Positions 1,566-63,960 of a DNA stretch of 64,000 nucleotides are shown here, piece by piece. This stretch comes from Eledone cirrhosa. Taxonomy: Eukaryota. Positions within the stretch are counted from its first letter, which is position 1, and each line of letters starts with the position of its first letter. The stretch is from positions 42,408,001-42,472,000 of the forward strand of contig OZ024756.1 in the NCBI GenBank assembly GCA_964016885.1. Reading direction: 5' to 3'. Made by a program: the position numbers and the translations under genes. The notes under the pieces are model-generated. The model was not told where the DNA came from. It searched no databases and worked only from the letters and a program-made list of their open reading frames with translations.

Positions 1566-4406
1566 ATCAATTTTCTGAAAATTTTAGATATTTCCACTCT
1601 ACCTTCTAATACCTTCAATGTGAACACAATACATTTTTTTTTAAAATAAAATCTTTTCATAATATAATTTTCAGAATCTTTTATTATATTATATTTTGAT
1701 ATAACATTTTTAAAATTTCATATTACAATAAGGAACATTTTTTAATGCTTGTAAATTTTAATGAAAGTTTTAAATTCAAGAAGTAAAACCAATGTTATTT
1801 GAAGCCCAAATGATGGTATTTTTGTTTTATAAAACATCTTGGTTTATTAGACTAGAAATCATACTAAGGTATAGCTATATATGGGCAGTAATACAAAATA
1901 ACGTGTAATGTAATTAATTTATTTTTTCATAAGACTAATTTTTTTTACACACATGTATGTATATATATATATACATGTATGTATGTGTGTATATATATAT
2001 ATATACATACATACATATATATATATATATACACATATATGTATATATACCCATAACAGCAAAACTACCTGGCTTTGATTATTAAAAGAAATCACATCAA
2101 AGCAGGTATTGTGTAAAATTAACAAGAATTTACCGAAATCAATAAGCCTGTGTCCCCATTGTCTTTATTCTTAAACTTCAACTTTTCCATAATAAAAATC
2201 TTGCTGACCAGCACTGCATCATAAGGAACATTTTCCATTTCCGGATATATATCATTCCAGTTATATTGATATATTGATTTTTAATTAACCAAGAGAAAGG
2301 GCTGAATGAAAACAGTTTATTAAACCCAATCATTATTATTTTTTTTTTTTTTTTAATTTGCATTTCATTTTTTTATATTGTTAAATTTCGATCAGTGTTT
2401 TTTTTTTGTTTTTTTTTCTGTAGCTTTTTAAAATCTTTTTTTTTTAAACTTTTTTTTTTCATCAGGTTTGTAGGTGTCTGTGTGTGCTGTACAGTATATA
2501 TTTATAAACAATACTCTATAAAGTTTAGTGTGTCTGTGTTGGAAATATTGTTTATGTGGTCGTTCATTTTCTAGTGTTTTCATTTAATGTATATATATAT
2601 TTATATATTTTCAATACATAAGGTTCCGTCAAATCTGGCATTGGTGTCTGTTACACCATTATATATTTGCACCATGTCACCACCATCAGCAATAATGTTT
2701 TAGAAAGTCTTTAGTGACATTATAGTTAGTAATTCTCACAGAGCAACAATATTTCATGAAAGTCTTTTAAATTCACAAAACAACAAAAAATAGAAAAATA
2801 AAAAGAGAAAAAGTTCTTTTTTTTTAAAAAATCTGTGGATAATTTGTATAAAGAGAGAAGTCGATGTTATCATAACCTCAAGAAATCATCATCATCATTA
2901 AATGTCTTCAGATATAGCAATAATTATTTTAATCCACTTTTTAATCAAGTTTCCAGCAATGATGTAGTATCAACTCTAATATTTAAATACAAGTCGATGA
3001 TGTTTTTATTTTAGTTATTTTTTCCTAAATCAAGGATTTCCATTTTTTTATTTTTTATTTTCTTTCTTAAATTCTTTTCGTTAAATATGAATAATTTTCA
3101 GTGAACTCATACCAAATATTTTTTTTTTTCCATTTGTTTTTGTTTTTTCCATTTAAACAAACAATTTCTGTTTATTTTGCATTGATTTAATATCATATTT
3201 TCTTCCATTAGAATTTTTTTTAAAGATTAAAAGTTGCAGAACAAATTTTTTTTTTTTTAAATATAATTTCTCATTCTAGATTATAATTAATGTTCTTTGT
3301 AATGTATAATTAATTTTACACCTAATTTAATTAGGACTTTCAGCTCACTCTCATTATAATTGCTTCTCTGTGTTTATCTTCTTGTTTTCTTTTTAAAAAG
3401 AAGTCCTTCAGTTGTATCAAAGAAAAGAATGCTTCTCTTGTTTGTATTTAAATTATTAAATTAATAAATGTTTCTAGTGAGAATGAGAACAAGACAGAAT
3501 TATCTTTTAGGCCATATTAGTTCTAGCAACTTCATCAATAAATTCTTCTCCAATTAGGAAAATATGGGGACACAGCCAGTTTTAGAGATATTTAGTCAGT
3601 TTTTTAAGGATAATTAATAAACGGTAACAATAACAATGAAGGCTACAAATATGCTGCCATAACCAACTAAATGGTTTACTTAAAGATCAAAGAACTAATG
3701 GGCCTCAGCAGCCCTTATTACAACATTCATCCACTAACATAACAGGTAACAATTACTAAGAAACCACACAGTCAATACAATCAGCTAAAAATCTTTTTTT
3801 TCCCTTTCGTTTATTTTTTAAAAATTAATTTTAAATTAATTTTTAATTAATTTTAAATTAATGTTGTTAATTTTCTCTCCTGTGAAAAGGAGGGAATATA
3901 ATTTTAAGGCAGTTTCAAATTTCTGCTTAGAGTATATTCCTATATTCCTGACAAGAAATGTTTTACTGTATGTGTGTATGTGTGTGTGTATAATTATGTA
4001 AATTTGTGTATGTGTGTATGCGTAAGTCTGTTTGTGTGAGTGTGTGTATTCACATGCTATGGTACTGCAAAAAGCTGCATATGAATTATATTGTAAATAT
4101 TTGAGAGTCATAAAACCATGTTTATCATTAATGTTGCATATTTAAACACTAAAATACATTTGCATAATATCCGTTAAACATTAGAGATCTGCATCTAATT
4201 TACAATTTACTGCTTAATTATACATTATAATTATTTTCTGAAATTTAATATTTTGAACTGTATTACCTTGGTTATATATCTCTTGAAGTTAATTTCAATA
4301 CCATCTTTAAAAGTATTGATAAAAATCTTAATTTTTCTAAGTTCAAATAAATTATATAATATTTGTAATTAAATAATGAAAATAAGGCAAAAGGGGAAAG
4401 GAGCTG

Positions 4407-4802
4407 CAAAACCCTACACCCCAGTTTAGGTGGTATATCTCGGCTTTGAGTGACTGATTCTACACCCCAGTTTAGGGAGTAGTAGAGTCTGCAATTCCCT
4501 ACCACAGCTGAGATATACCACCTAGACTGGGGTGTAGAATCTGTCACTCCCTACCACAGCTGAGATATGCCACCTAGACTGGGGTGTAGAGTCTGTCACT
4601 CCCTACCACAGCTGAGATATGCCACCTAGACTGGGGTGTAGAGTCTGTCACTCCCTACCACAGCTGAGATATACCAGCTAGACTGGGGTTAGAGTCTGTC
4701 ACTCCCTACCACAGCTGAGATATACCAGCTAGACTGGGTGTAGAGTCTATCACTCCCTACCACAACTGAGATATACCACCTAGACTGGGGTGTAGAGTTT
4801 TG
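4407..4802. mobile_element. MITE-like element with 39-bp terminal inverted repeats and a 52-bp x6 internal tandem array
   Basis: CAAAACCCTACACCCCAGTTTAGGTGGTATATCTCGGCT at the left, reverse complement at the right (4 mismatches). Units at 4495, 4547, 4599, 4651, 4702, 4753. Confidence 0.75.
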
Positions 4803-12825: not shown

Positions 12826-12935
12826 CTTAGTGCAGACTGGCTGTCATATATTTTCTTTTCATCATTTGTGGCTGAAAATTTAGTTTCTGTGTACTAGACT
12901 TTGTTTTCTATAGATTATAACTTCAATATGTTTAC

Positions 12936-13083
12936 CTTGTGCAAACTGGTCTTCTAGCTCTCTCACATTGGACTGCATCAAAGAAAGCAGCATTCCAGAA
13001 TCTTAAGGAATGCCAGATAGGTTGTTCACGTAGGAAGGTGTAGAGAAAGCATTTCACTGCAATCTTTTTTCCAATTTGGCGAC
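12936..13083 (-). CDS. KIAA0513: KIAA0513-like (SBF2-domain) protein, internal exon
   Basis: [48 protein letters not shown], matching the KIAA0513 motif [18 protein letters not shown](H)CER as recalled. Polypyrimidine tract + cag acceptor, AG|GTAAA donor, 148 bp. Confidence 0.93.
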
Positions 13084-13339
13084 CTGATTTAAAAAAAAGA
13101 AGAAAAAAAAGAATTGAATAAAAACAGATTCATTTTAAACAGATGTAAATTTAATTGCAAGTGTTGCAGCTTTATAAGCCACATGCTGGAAGTGAGAGGA
13201 ACAGTGGCATCAGGTGAGGTGAAGGGGAAAATGATGAGAGGGCTTTTTTTCTTGTGAGGATTTGCTGTGAGTAGTCAGGTGTCTGTGATCTTCTGTGAAT
13301 CTCAGGGTTACTTCTGGTGCTTGACTCATAATCTCAGAT

Positions 13340-51282: not shown

Positions 51283-52097
51283 TCATTCCCGTAAAGCCAT
51301 TTCTCGTTCTAATTTCTTTATCTTAAGTTGATGGTATCTTTTCTGAGCTTCCACACGCTGAGAGTCTACACCATAGTATGCCAGTTGAGCCTCTATTCGT
51401 TTTTTCTCCATCTTATATAGATTAGTCTCAGCTTCAATTCTATGTTTATCTGCAACCAAAGTATCAAGTTCTAATTTAGTAACTTCATCCGTTGATTGTG
51501 ATTTTCTTTTTCTTCCTGCTGCAACTGTAAGCCGATTCATTAGAGGAGTTTCATCAAATAGCCGACGAGAAGGTTCTATGATGTCTGGGATATCTCTATC
51601 AGTTTGCATTCCAATTTCATGAGTCCGGAAAAAGTATTCACCAACACCAAAAGTACGCGTTCTAAGGCTTGGACCAACAGACACTTCATGTGTAATGACA
51701 GCTGGTTTCATATATTCGTAAAATCTAACAGGTGATGTCGCTGTGTTGCGTTTTTGACAAACTGACTTAGAATTCATTTCTATTTTCCTGATAGTTTGGA
51801 CTACAGGTGGTCGTTCTGGTAACTTAAAATCAGCAGCCACTGCAATGTCATGAGTTTGTAACTTGGCACTGATGGAAATATCTTTGGTTCTGACAGTTGC
51901 TGTCATAGTGGCAGCATCCTGAGTTATTGGCTTTGTAACACTTGGTGTACGTGGTACTGTTCCTACATCTCGGAATTTAGTTGGCTCAACGTATTCAGGC
52001 TTGCTTTCAATTGTTTGAGTTGAAGCATCATGTGAAATAGGGGTCACTGTTTGTGTACTATCTTCAGTCAGTGGTCCAAGGCCATATTTGACATTAT
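51283..52097 (-). CDS. Terminal coding exon of an unidentified gene: TQT-motif-rich disordered region plus C-terminal coiled coil
   Basis: About 270 open codons of non-repetitive, coding-like composition. Acceptor tttaatttattgcag at 52098-52100 (phase 1) extends the listed ORF by NVKYGLGPLTEDSTQT; TGA at 51283-51285. Confidence 0.8.
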
Positions 52098-52343
52098 CTG
52101 CAATAAATTAAATAAATAAATTAATAAATTAATTTCCACATATAAAAACAAGATAGTACTTCAAACAAATTAGTATGTTAGTAAAGTAAAGGGGAAAGGT
52201 CGCCATTGGTCCTTGAGTGATCCTTTCTGAGGCACAAGCTCAGGCAAGGTGTTTTCGTGAAAGACCTGCTAACGTCCATGCATACCCAACTCCATACACC
52301 CAATGTCGTCCACGGGAAAAACAAAGGCACCAGTAACGTATAT

Positions 52344-55795: not shown

Positions 55796-55800
55796 TAAAA

Positions 55801-55831
<31 letters not shown>

Positions 55832-55860
55832 GATATATATATATATATATATATATAAAA

Positions 55861-55965
<105 letters not shown>

Positions 55966-55966
55966 G

Positions 55967-56007
<41 letters not shown>

Positions 56008-56037
56008 TATATATATATATATATATAAAACCATATT

Positions 56038-56103
56038 TATTTCATTATATATATTTCGGGGATATCATATTAACAATATGCTATGCCTTCATCAGACAAA
56101 ATA
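56038..56103 (-). ncRNA. Mirror copy of the 56.2-kb hammerhead motif
   Basis: Exact reverse complement within the perfect 114-bp inverted repeat 56024-56137/56163-56276. Confidence 0.7.
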
Positions 56104-56196
56104 CAATATAAACAGTTTTATAGATAAATAGATTCGACATACAGTTATAACACCGACTTCATTCGAATCTATTTATCTATAAAACTGTTTATATTG

Positions 56197-56262
56197 TATT
56201 TTGTCTGATGAAGGCATAGCATATTGTTAATATGATATCCCCGAAATATATATAATGAAATA
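56197..56262 (+). ncRNA. Minimal type-I hammerhead ribozyme motif
   Basis: TATTTTGT-CTGATGA(56205-11)-A GGCATAGCATATT gtt AATATGATATCCC C-GAAA(56243-46)-TATATATA-ATGAAATA. Stem I of 8 bp (2 GU), palindromic stem III, AUA cleavage triplet. Confidence 0.72.
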
Positions 56263-56418
56263 AATATGGTTTTATAAATATAGTTTTCCATTTATTTAAT
56301 ATTGTAAATATACTCCAAATATTTGTCGAGTGCTTTTATATCAGTTATAAATATTTACTAGTTGTAACCCAACAATTTTAAATATAACTTTCCATATATA
56401 TATATATATATAAATATA

Positions 56419-56460
<42 letters not shown>

Positions 56461-56687
56461 TAAAAATATATATATATATAAATATATAAAAATATATATA
56501 TATATATATATAAAAATATATATATATATATATATAAAAATATATATATATATATATAAAAATATATATATATATATATATATAAAAATATATATATATA
56601 TTTATATATATATATATATATATATAAAAATATATATATATATAAATATAAAAATATATATATATATATAAATATAAAAATATATAT

Positions 56688-57305
56688 ATCATCATCATCA
56701 TCATCATCATCAGGTTTAGCGTCCGTGTTCCACACTTGCATGGGTTTGGACGGGGGTTTTCCCACTTGAGGCAAGAATGGTTGTCTTGCTCGCATAGGAC
56801 TGTCTGGCGGGTTTTCTACAGTTGGATGCCCTTCCTAACACCAACCACATTTACAGTGTGGGGCTGGGAGGTTTTTACCGTGTTGCCTACACGGCCACAT
56901 TTACAGCGTGGACTGTGTGTTTTTTTTGTCGTGACACCTACACGATCTCATTTGTTTCGGCCTGGATGTTGTGGGACCAACATAACTTTACATGAAAGGG
57001 GCGGTGTGGATGGGGTGGAGGTGGTGGGACGGGGGGGTGTTTTGATAGAGATGCTACTGACTGTAGTAGGTTTTTACTTTGTATTTAGGTAAGGCGGGTC
57101 TTCTCTATTACTGAGTACCGCCAAAGGTCTCGGTCCAGTGACATTGTCTTGGAGAGGTGTAAGCGTGTGAGGTCGGAATTTATCAGCTCGTCCCATGTTT
57201 TTCTGGGTCTGCCTACTCCGTGGCTACCGTCTATCTTTATTGCCCTGCACTTTGTTATACAGCTGTCGTCTTTCATGCGCATCACGTGACCGTACCAACG
57301 TAGCA
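56688..57305 (-). mobile_element. RTE-clade LINE 3' end with (GAT)n tail, inserted in (AT)n
   Basis: LRWYGHVMRMKDDSCITKCRAIKIDGSHGVGRPRKTWDELINSDL...DRDLWR, followed by 3' UTR and gatgatgat. Confidence 0.88.
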
Positions 57306-58141
57306 TATATATATATATATATAAAAATATATATATATATAAAAATATATATATATATATATAAAAATATATATATATATATATAAATATAAAAATATAT
57401 ATATAAATATAAAAATATATATATATATATAAAAATATATATATATATATATATATAAATATAAAAATATATATATATAAAAATATATATATTAGAAAGT
57501 GAGGTTTTTTTTACAAAATGAAAAATAACCGAGGTATCCTACACGAGTGAAAGTATAAAGAAAAAAAGATGAAATCGAAAATGCAACTGGAGTCTTATTT
57601 TTTTAAAAATATATATATTTATTTGGTTCCTTTACCGGTTTCGCAGTTCTTCTGCTTTTCAAAAGTAGAGTTGAGATGGAGGGTCTGTGGTTTTTCTCAC
57701 ATCTGGTTGGTCTCTGAATGTTACTTGTTTTATATGGAAAAAGTGGTTCGAAATGCCAGGTTTTTCGAGAAGTAATTTGATTGGTTGGTCAATAATTATA
57801 ATAAATTTCGCGCCAGTTCGCGTTACAATAGTTCTTCAAATAAGAGGGATTGGTTGGTCAATAATTATAATAAATTTCGCGCCAGTTCGCGTTACAATAG
57901 TTCTTCAAATAAGAGGGGGGGGGGGGGGGGGTGTCACAGGTTGTTTTTTCATATATGAGTGTTTGAATTTCTTTTTACTTGAAAAAAGGGGCTCACGAAG
58001 GCTTTTTTAAAAATATATATATATATTTGTTTATAAATATATATATATATATATATTTTTATATATATATATAAAAAATATATATATATATATATATATA
58101 CGATATTAAACAAATGGAAACTATATTTATAAAACCATATT

Positions 58142-58207
58142 TATTTCATTATACATATTTCAGGGATACCATATTAAAAATATGGCATGCCTTCTTCAGA
58201 TAAAATA
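58142..58207 (-). ncRNA. Third, diverged copy of the 56-kb hammerhead family
   Basis: TATTTTAT-CTGAAGA-AGGCATGCCATATT ttt AATATGGTATCCCT-GAAA-TATGTATA-ATGAAATA. Substitutions relative to the 56-kb copy mostly keep or improve pairing. Confidence 0.7.
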
Positions 58208-58461
58208 CAATATATAAGCAGTTTTATAAATAAATTTGACGTACCATAAATATTGAACAACATCCATTTAAGAGGTTGGTTTGGTAGTGAAATGTTTATA
58301 AATATTTAGTGTTAAGCACAGTTAGAAAGAAAGACGGAGAAAAGGAAGAAATGTATGTAAAGAAAAACAGAGAGAGATAGAGAGAGAAATGGGAGAGAGA
58401 AATAGTGAGGAGGTGAAAAATGTATATATATATATATATATATATATATGGAAAGTATATC

Positions 58462-58894: not shown

Positions 58895-59405
<511 letters not shown>

Positions 59406-59599
59406 GATAAATCTACCAAGAGTTTACGGTAGTGTCCAATCCGTGTGAAGAACTCAATGTATTCCAGATATCATGGAAAGAAGAGATGTAATGAAAAATC
59501 ACTTTCGGTGAAAGATAAAACGGTATACAGAGTCAAGATAAAATATTAAACAAATAATGAATAAACAATGAGACAGTTCCTTATATTAAACAAAAAAAG

Positions 59600-59750
59600 T
59601 TCATTATTTAACGATCGTTTCTAGGATATATATGTGTTAGAATTGGCATGCATATTCAACAGATCTATGTACAAAATTATACAAAATTATACAAACTATC
59701 AAGATTAAATATACATACCAACACATATATACGCCGTCTTCAGAAATAAT
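59600..59750 (-). ncRNA. Mirror copy of the 59.8-kb hammerhead motif
   Basis: Reverse complement of the plus-strand motif; stem I 5' strand truncated to ATTATTT. Confidence 0.72.
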
Positions 59751-59780
59751 TTCTGAAGACGGCGTATATATGTGTTGGTC

Positions 59781-59934
59781 TTCATTATTTCTGAAGACGG
59801 CGTATATATGTGTTGGTATGTATATTTAATCTTGATAGTTTGTATAATTTTGTATAATTTTGTACATAGATCTGTTGAATATGCATGCCAATTCTAACAC
59901 ATATATATCCTAGAAACGATCGTTAAATAATGAA
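59781..59934 (+). ncRNA. Type-I hammerhead ribozyme motif with extended stem II
   Basis: Stem I TTCATTATTT(59781-90)/AAATAATGAA(59925-34), perfect 10 bp. Core CTGAAGA(59791-97). Stem II of about 19 bp closing a large loop. GAAAC(59913-17), palindromic stem III AACGATCGTT, predicted cleavage after GUU (59924). Confidence 0.8.
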
Positions 59935-60033
59935 CTTTTTTTGTTTAATATAAGGAACTGTCTCATTGTTTATTCATTATTTGTTTAATATAAGGAACTG
60001 TCTCATTGTTTATTCATTATTTGTTTAATATTT

Positions 60034-60109
<76 letters not shown>

Positions 60110-61244: not shown

Positions 61245-61444
61245 NNNNNNNNNNNNNNNNNNNNNNNNNNNNNNNNNNNNNNNNNNNNNNNNNNNNNNNN
61301 NNNNNNNNNNNNNNNNNNNNNNNNNNNNNNNNNNNNNNNNNNNNNNNNNNNNNNNNNNNNNNNNNNNNNNNNNNNNNNNNNNNNNNNNNNNNNNNNNNNN
61401 NNNNNNNNNNNNNNNNNNNNNNNNNNNNNNNNNNNNNNNNNNNN
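61245..61444. other. Assembly gap (200 N)
   Basis: Run of N between an (AT)n tract and a tandem repeat. Confidence 1.
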
Positions 61445-61910: not shown

Positions 61911-62387
61911 TGACCACATCACCTGAGCCAACTAATTGGGGTCCTTTGTAGTCTGCTCCCAAACTCTATTCTCCATCAGTAATTTTTCTAGGTTGTCTCC
62001 ATTGATTGGGGGGGGGGGGGGGGGGGGGCGTCTAAAAATGTTATAAGCAGGAGAAGAGGAAGATTATAAGTTCCCTCATATATAAACTCCCCTCCACATA
62101 GTATACTTATAGAGCCTAGGTCTAAATCATTTAATTAACCCTTTAGCATTAAAACCGGCCATATCTGGCCAGAATTCTCTCACCTCTTTCTATTTAAATC
62201 AGCCATAACTGGCCACTCATACTGATGTTAAGGTATTGTTCTCAAAATAAATAATATCAAAATCTCATAGATTTGATATTATGTCAGATAATTATGTGAA
62301 GTGAAGTGTTTACCGTGAAAATACAATAGTATATATAGAGTAATGTAAATGGTAAAGGGTTAATTAAATAAAAACATGCCAACTTGC

Positions 62388-62571
62388 CTTCATCTTCATC
62401 GTCTTCTTTGTTCTGATGAGAGGAATATGTATTGAGGAAGTTTGCAATGTCACCACCATTTTCAATTAGTTCCGTGTATGTACCTGTACTGATTACCTTT
62501 CCTTTGTTGATAACTATAACAAAATCAACGAAGGGTAACCAGTGTACACCATGGGTGACCAACAGACGAGT
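62388..62571 (-). CDS. ABCC1: ABCC/MRP transporter, H-loop/linker exon (ABCC1 exon 19 equivalent), GC donor
   Basis: TRLLVTHGVHWLPFVDFVIVINKGKVISTGTYTELIENGGDIANFLNTYSSHQNKEDDEDE. Acceptor cctttcag; ends at AAG|GCAAGT, giving 184 bp. Confidence 0.92.
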
Positions 62572-62609
62572 CTGAAAGGTAGAATAAAACAGGGACAGTA
62601 ATTTGATGG

Positions 62610-62745
62610 TCAATAATTATAGATAGATGTGATTTAGTGATCAATAATTTAGATAGATGTGATTTAATGATCAATACTTATAGATAGATGTGATCTGGTA
62701 ATCAATAATTATAGATAGATGTGATCTGGTGGTCAATAATTATAG
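62610..62745. repeat. 31-bp intronic tandem repeat, 4-5 copies
   Basis: tcaataattatagatagatgtgatttagtga units. Confidence 0.85.
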
Positions 62746-62957
62746 GCAGATATGTCTTCAAAGACCAGTCAGTATTTAAGCAGATCCATTGACCTACAGG
62801 TGGCCCCAGGGCCTGATATATAATCTCATGCTTTTCTGAGTACCTTTTATCATGGCACCAACGCAAGGGAAGTTGTTGCATCCTCTTGTCACAGTTGAAG
62901 AGACCTTCCAACACTTTTTGGGGGCAGGTTTTCAATGGCTGGATACCCTTGCTATCA

Positions 62958-63960
<1,003 letters not shown>

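Follow-up and report, generated by a model that had tools for sequence, protein, structure and literature searches.

In the 64,000-nucleotide stretch of Eledone cirrhosa DNA analyzed here (the window), a perfect hairpin carries a hammerhead ribozyme in each arm, a diverged third copy lies nearby, and one C.C mismatch in stem II recurs in a further pair of ribozymes. The locus raises two questions, namely whether the hairpin is kept for its own structure or is left behind by transposition, and whether the recurrent mismatch matters to the ribozyme. As for the first, hairpin and ribozyme are known features of Penelope-like elements (PLEs), and the locus itself is ordinary: the window copies are very probably 5'-truncated 3' (pLTR) fragments of an abundant Hydra-clade PLE, with hammerheads predicted to cleave as dimers, the hairpin being the common back-to-back layout in (TA)n. 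As for the second, the value lies in a natural mutational series of seven high-copy families, with reverse transcriptases (RTs) about 50% identical, which have held on to the catalytic core, to a palindromic helix for dimer formation, and to one particular mismatch in stem II.

Anatomy of the locus

The two arms, 56024–56137 and 56163–56276, are exact reverse complements of 114 bp separated by a 25-nt spacer, with a computed fold of −174.7 kcal/mol. A structure-based scan of the 64-kb window detects five type I hammerhead cores, at 56205 (+), 56095 (−), 58199 (−), 59791 (+), and 59743 (−), compared with two matches in total across 30 block-wise dinucleotide shuffles of the window. CUGANGA, GAAA, and UH are all present, with stems I–III in type I order, and cleavage is predicted after 56254 (+), 56046 (−), and 58150 (−). 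The perfect arms with their 25-nt loop, the three hammerheads of 66 nt, and the C.C mismatch had all been recognized in an earlier sequence-only reading and are confirmed here. The extent given there, 56024–58207, does contain these features but is too narrow, as the plus arm reaches 56394 and the third copy spans about 58100–58420 on the minus strand. Each arm does hold a hammerhead, as had been stated, with the correction that the two lie on opposite strands, so that one transcript carries one ribozyme together with its antisense.

The short arm is an inverted 5'-truncated pLTR copy of 139 bp (56024–56162, minus strand), in which hammerhead copy 1 (56038–56103, minus strand, 66 nt, identical to copy 2) is predicted to be cut after 56046. 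Its 3' end lies about 30 nt short of the usual short end before (TA)n begins, the sole case of such a very short end among 145 copies. The 25-nt "loop" (56138–56162, minus strand) is an extra 5' part of this copy and matches the element's usual upstream sequence, as judged against a relative (L035). The long arm is a 5'-truncated pLTR copy with a tail (56163–56394, plus strand; 98% identical to L035 over 271 nt), and its hammerhead copy 2 (56197–56262, plus strand), with predicted cleavage after A56254, is composed of an 8-bp stem I, CUGAUGA at 56205–56211, stem II at 56212–56242, GAA, and a palindromic stem III (AUAUAUAU). The mismatch occupies stem II position 4 (56215–56239, plus strand), where C56215 stands opposite C56239. 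The tail of about 90 nt (56305–56394, plus strand) is absent from the other arm; where elements stand in tandem, it continues into the 5' UTR of the ORF that follows. A (TA)n target microsatellite lies to the left of the hairpin (55799–56023) and resumes at 56395, and (TA)n also borders the two neighboring insertions. The first of these is a solo 5'-truncated insertion of another subfamily with a short, tail-less end (about 58100–58420, minus strand; 94.5% identical to L041 over 328 nt), holding hammerhead copy 3 (58142–58207, minus strand), for which cleavage is predicted after 58150. The second is a head-to-head insertion of a sister family, F2, at 59403–60036, with two hammerheads (cores at 59743, minus, and 59791, plus) whose stem II measures 115 nt. 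None of the window copies contains an ORF; the ORFs are known from relatives.

A search of the window against Rfam returned no match at gathering threshold and no hammerhead family at E ≤ 5. Sub-threshold matches to miRNA precursors were rejected, being generic hairpin scores far under the gathering thresholds. Elsewhere in the window, exons of an ABC transporter (PF00005; ABCC-like by motif) occur at 62284–63847 (minus strand), beyond an N gap at 61245–61444, and a screen of 118 minus-strand ORFs yielded no further ABC exon. A myotubularin/SBF2 exon lies at 12935–13129 (minus strand), and a 274-aa open frame of ordinary composition, lacking a Pfam match, at 51283–52107 (minus strand).

A probable Hydra-clade Penelope-like element

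The element is abundant: in the 3.0-Gb genome, 16,074 sites exactly match a 21-letter pattern of core plus stem II, and 29,253 match a 24-mer lying downstream of the cut site, the reversed control scoring 0 in each case. Long inverted or tandem hammerhead pairs enclose, on the sense strand, an ORF that encodes an RT with a C-terminal GIY-YIG. In one complete copy (L255), cores at 2303 and 6044 flank a 745-aa ORF (2516–4750), giving a unit of 3,741 bp; ORFs of 745 aa with YRDD and IY..YVG are present in L255, L256, and L257, and many open frames of 733–771 aa occur among 150 scored matches. Many copies (noted in L031, L033, L036, L039, L040, and L045) carry a frameshift at one shared poly-C tract ahead of the endonuclease region, which other copies read through; this may be homopolymer slippage or sequencing error.

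Section 11 of PMC8557442 gives as marks of the Hydra clade RW(K/R), DKT rather than DKG, a CxCx5C linker, and CxxC with CxH. The protein carries RWR at 38, DKT at 119, CNCRDRSKC at 597 (CxCx5C), CDLC at 695 (CxxC), and CRH at 722 (CxH), so that an RWK-type motif, DKT, the linker, and CxxC and CxH around the conserved E and N are all found, and blocks shared with Hydra-1_Obim can be recognized by eye. Relatives also show the single ORF in sense orientation to the pLTR hammerheads, and insertion into (TA)n in tandem or inverted layout with a one-sided tail is likewise of the Hydra kind. The clade's tendency to lengths below 3 kb is not followed, at 3,741 bp (L255) and 7,081 bp (F2, L157). Hydra elements are further marked by the lack of a CCHH motif and of a conserved N-terminal GxKF/Y; in the protein taken by itself, a GVKF stands at 85, after RWR, and F2 does not retain it. 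Argonauta hians is the only named source among the 120 homologues listed (36–41% identity), and Pfam gave no RT or GIY-YIG match at E ≤ 0.1 on four pieces of PLE ORF. It should be noted that placement in the Hydra clade is made on motifs, the RT trees including no named Hydra reference sequence.

Head-to-head insertion as the origin of the hairpin

The hairpin is an insertion by-product. Among 145 copies, 43 head-to-head pairs were found, 42 of which have one tailed and one short arm, and the 100 copies taken by exact anchor form 26 head-to-head versus 2 tail-to-tail pairs. The same inverted layout is described in PMC8557442 and PMC3846280; PMC11167929 reports two RT start sites that bound the tail, with both strands extended, and PMC3846280 offers self-priming on an antisense template as an alternative origin. 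A plausible sequence of events is that the RT/GIY-YIG protein nicks (TA)n, that the RNA end is copied from two start sites, one short and one tailed, and that the two aborted cDNAs resulting from two primings are joined head to head, here with a junction microhomology of about 1 nt. Whichever strand is transcribed, the antisense arm would be made first, which would block folding and bury the ribozyme.

The perfect arms, the very stable fold, and the sub-threshold miRNA-precursor matches could be taken to mean that the hairpin is a selected RNA device, such as a ribozyme switch or a small-RNA precursor, or else a self-standing foldback element. This is very improbable, given that the distance between the arms varies without a break from 138 to 4,995 bp over the 43 pairs, with ORF pieces enclosed by the longer ones, that the loop is merely the 5' part of the arm that is longer on that side, and that the Rfam scores fall far below gathering thresholds; a young insertion would have perfect arms anyway. 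An assembly or library fold-back artefact is extremely improbable as an origin of the palindrome. The setting would suit one, as the hairpin is embedded in a long run of (TA)n and an N gap lies some 5 kb away, but its arm ends are unequal and element-specific, just as in 42 of the 43 pairs and in the insertions described in PMC8557442 and PMC3846280. Loose contig ends at 56163 carry the element's normal upstream sequence, and junction-bridging contigs number 0 in four contig sets, a count that is uninformative for a high-copy repeat.

As an insertion by-product, the hairpin is matched by Pen2a_Av of Adineta (PMC3846280), the Craig 2021 Fig. 2 legend, and PAc of the anole (PMC11167929), which present the same head-to-head truncated copy with a one-sided tail; the microhomology junction and the AT-rich target are also alike. 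Unlike the inverted-pLTR insertions described in these sources, the arms here are only 139 and 232 bp, so that the insertion is almost wholly hairpin, and the short arm stops about 30 nt early. In one further pair (L096:602–858, C1 at about 17.02 Mb), the head-to-head arms belong to different subfamily haplotypes with eight differences, which hints at two RNA templates per insertion.

Signs of selection on the hammerhead fold

The third copy had been described as diverged from the other two, and indeed differs from them at 8 of 66 positions, copies 1 and 2 being identical over all 66 nt. In copy 3, a stem I G-U becomes A-U, N7 changes from U to A, and stem II changes at position 1 (A.C to A-U), position 7 (A-U to G-U), and position 8 (G.A to C-G, by two changes), with one further change each in loop 2 and the palindromic stem III. 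Since its stem II haplotype recurs in other insertions (6 of 74 sampled, with 9 of 74 for that of copies 1 and 2), these differences are subfamily markers rather than local divergence, and copy 3 is, judging from its haplotype, a separate insertion of another subfamily.

A larger sample was drawn with the downstream anchor, whose first 100 matches are unbiased for core and stem II; the anchor fixes the 3' strand of stem I and allows no fair estimate of covariation there. The catalytic core is intact in 89 of the 100, and N7 occurs as all four bases. Among 91 parsed copies from 74 insertions, with shared variants defined as those in at least three insertions and the five variants found in exactly two left out, core variants outside N7 make up none of 21 shared and 6 of 18 private variants (Fisher p = 0.006). 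Stem II exchanges one pair for another at position 2 (G-C in 58, A-U in 16, G-U in 12), position 5 (A-U in 80, G-U in 5, G-C in 3), and position 6 (U-A in 71, C-G in 15). The contention that changes preserve the structure thus holds for these compensatory pairs but not for every change, because young subfamilies frequently have a mismatch at position 8 (G.A for copies 1 and 2), which is paired in just 44 of 89 copies. Covariation in the larger alignment gave a divided answer: over 51 distinct rows, two-sided stem II changes occupy 30 cells where shuffles give 10.9 and none of 500 reaches 30, counts that are inflated by kinship, whereas the number of covarying pairs, four, is not above shuffles (164 of 500). 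Taken together, the sequence data support selection on the RNA fold, as had been claimed, with active master elements rather than the window copies as its target.

Stem III is an 8-nt palindrome with a different sequence in each of F1 (the hairpin family), F2, F3, and F8. The double hammerhead has a computed fold of −10.4 kcal/mol versus +2.2 kcal/mol for two monomers, a modeled advantage that would, as expected, fit the dimeric action described for PLE hammerheads in PMC4209133 and PMC6765202. In a tandem pLTR–ORF–pLTR transcript, the two hammerheads would then pair via the palindromic stem III and cut. With an anole PLE, PMC11167929 reports that ribozyme-dead RNA was inserted normally in vitro and that RNA-seq showed no read ends at the cut site; despite such cleavage-dispensable insertion in another PLE, the mutational series argues that the ribozyme matters to active elements. 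Two copies with differing stem II, L056 and L068 (C1:500123 and 2569418), have both lost the GAAA core through one and the same short deletion, either a recurrent event or the mark of a catalytically dead subfamily.

A stem II mismatch shared by seven families

In F1, position 4 is C.C in 85 of 89 parsed copies and unpaired in 50 of 51 distinct rows; a paired state appears in no shared variant and as a single private G-C in 89 copies. As had been noticed, C.C also occupies this position in both 59.8-kb copies of the window. The idea that those ribozymes are otherwise unrelated to the hairpin family proved wrong, as the RTs of F1 and F2 are homologous, with 49% and 42% identity over two blocks. 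Conservation of C.C extends beyond what had been proposed, to seven families, those beyond F1 and F2 being found by a hammerhead scan with no mismatch requirement: C.C is present in F2 (41/41), F4 (26/29), F6 (32/35), F8 (37/39), and F9 (20/21), and F3 has C.U in 12 of 12. For these counts, contexts lacking CUGANGA were excluded (9 in F2, 1 in F3, 2 in F6, 2 in F8, 14 in F9), F4 and most F6 copies had their 5' side fixed by the search pattern, and a few copies may be counted twice through overlapping loci. Genome matches number 7,259 for F2, 11,284 for F4, 8,762 for F6, 6,443 for F8, and 1,151 for F9. Flanking pairs change between families, for example at position 3 (G-C, A-U, or U-A) and position 7 (A-U, C-G, or G-C); overall, all seven families have C as the most frequent 5' base, while pairs 2, 3, 5, 6, and 7 switch among G-C, A-U, U-A, C-G, and G-U. 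A further candidate, F11, was dropped as heterogeneous, with 37 genome matches and the core in only 12 of 25 contexts, and a single C.U copy occurs in L022. Among the families, F2 (L157:580–7661) is long for the Hydra clade, its 7.1-kb unit containing an open frame of 830 aa and, on the 3' side, about 4.3 kb of further sequence, and F8 (L414:1603–4705) has a 3.1-kb tandem unit with internal repeats and no PLE ORF, and is apparently non-autonomous.

Outside this lineage, a sense hammerhead is present at 54 of the 78 metagenome loci that carry related RTs, none with a pyrimidine mismatch at position 4, and in a stricter outgroup subset position 4 is paired in 29 of 30 distinct stems, including 15 of 15 long ones. 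The source genome has several other families of long-stem hammerheads, none assigned to a clade, that lack the mismatch. In the RT trees, which carry quick SH-aLRT support and a midpoint root, all source-genome RTs, the Argonauta proteins, and four others fall on one side of a branch with 100% support, which separates the source-genome RTs from every metagenome row. The link between hammerhead and RT is contiguous for F1, F2, F3, and F6, and one of adjacency for F4, F8, and F9. Given that F1 and F2 have homologous RTs on one side of a strong branch, they share the mismatch by descent, and because all carriers lie on one side of that branch, the mismatch had one origin, not seven. Nothing relevant to a helix II C.C mismatch in hammerheads turned up in the literature searched, beyond which figures, supplements such as the PMC4209133 alignments, and subscription papers could show one; a lineage-wide stem II mismatch has apparently not been described before.

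Possible roles of the mismatch

The comparison suggests that C.C arose once in the lineage and was probably kept by selection. That it was simply inherited and tolerated, with no selection on it, is unlikely: the single origin with all carriers beyond one branch would fit, as would the other mismatches of stem II at positions 1 and 8, but RTs have diverged to about 50% identity, every adjacent pair has changed and been re-paired, and position 4 itself has never been closed by a shared variant, only by one private G-C in 89 copies.

If kept by selection, C.C may weaken or kink stem II three pairs from the core, thereby damping cleavage until a dimer or protein-bound state is reached. In canonical hammerheads, loop 1 contacts loop 2, and in 4-bp stems loop 2 begins near stem II position 4, where a C.C or C.U might provide a specific tertiary or metal-binding contact for fast cleavage in place of the loop–loop contact. 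The constancy of the position across seven families, and of the 5' C while pairs 2, 3, 5, 6, and 7 vary, speaks for such a contact, which is nevertheless rather unlikely, as stem I ranges from about 4 to 10 bp with differing sequences and shows no conserved partner for the mismatch among the families, the outgroup Hydra-type long-stem hammerheads manage without it (15 of 15 paired), and one family has C.U. Attenuation or a kink is preferred here over a tertiary contact because stem I offers no conserved partner.

More speculatively, and at somewhat below even chances, the families may constitute a distinct hammerhead subtype of one Hydra-clade lineage, defined by an extended stem II, a C.C or C.U that is obligatory three pairs from the core, and a loopless stem III formed by an 8-nt palindrome, in which the mismatch would be functional and set the timing of the dimer cut, as a tertiary or Mg2+ contact or as a hinge recognized by the RT that the element encodes. 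If true, this would provide a natural handle on what PLE ribozymes do in transposition. The mismatch amounts to a single two-base position to test, which is feasible because intact 745-aa copies exist.

Relation to known elements

The element resembles the Hydra-clade EN+ PLEs of PMC8557442 (for example Hydra-1_Obim and Hydra-1_Amil) in its single ORF for RT with C-terminal GIY-YIG, its (TA)n targets, and its type I hammerhead, which lies close to the 3' end and has a palindromic stem III of about 4 bp. It differs in unit length, 3.7 kb (F1) and 7.1 kb (F2) versus "generally <3 kb", in a tail of about 90 nt versus 30–40, and in the extended stem II with its position-4 pyrimidine mismatch; no such internal mismatch was noticed by eye in the 26 Hydra rows of File S2, whose descriptor favors paired stems. 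With the dimeric pLTR hammerheads of PMC4209133 and PMC6765202 it has in common the type I core, the palindromic, unstable stem III, the longer helix II, families with covariation, and opposite-strand pairs 100–700 bp apart. In the consensus of PMC4209133, one base stays unpaired between positions 9 and 10.1, and G10.1-C11.1 is a conserved pair, in contrast to the closing pair here, which is A-U, A.C, G-U, C.A, or U.U, with C.C three pairs out; in copies 1 and 2, a slipped register with an unpaired A and a closing G-C may be possible.

Non-LTR retrozymes (bioRxiv 10.64898/2026.07.22.740005) are similar in that they combine a type I hammerhead with a short non-coding repeat related to PLE pLTRs. 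They are, however, head-to-tail tandem units with one hammerhead each, whereas the copies in the window derive from an autonomous element, of which they are fragments in inverted or solo arrangement. A retrozyme-like arrangement does occur in L252:5137–6264, where three identical head-to-tail hammerheads about 560 bp apart lie beside a PLE ORF of what appears by eye to be another clade.
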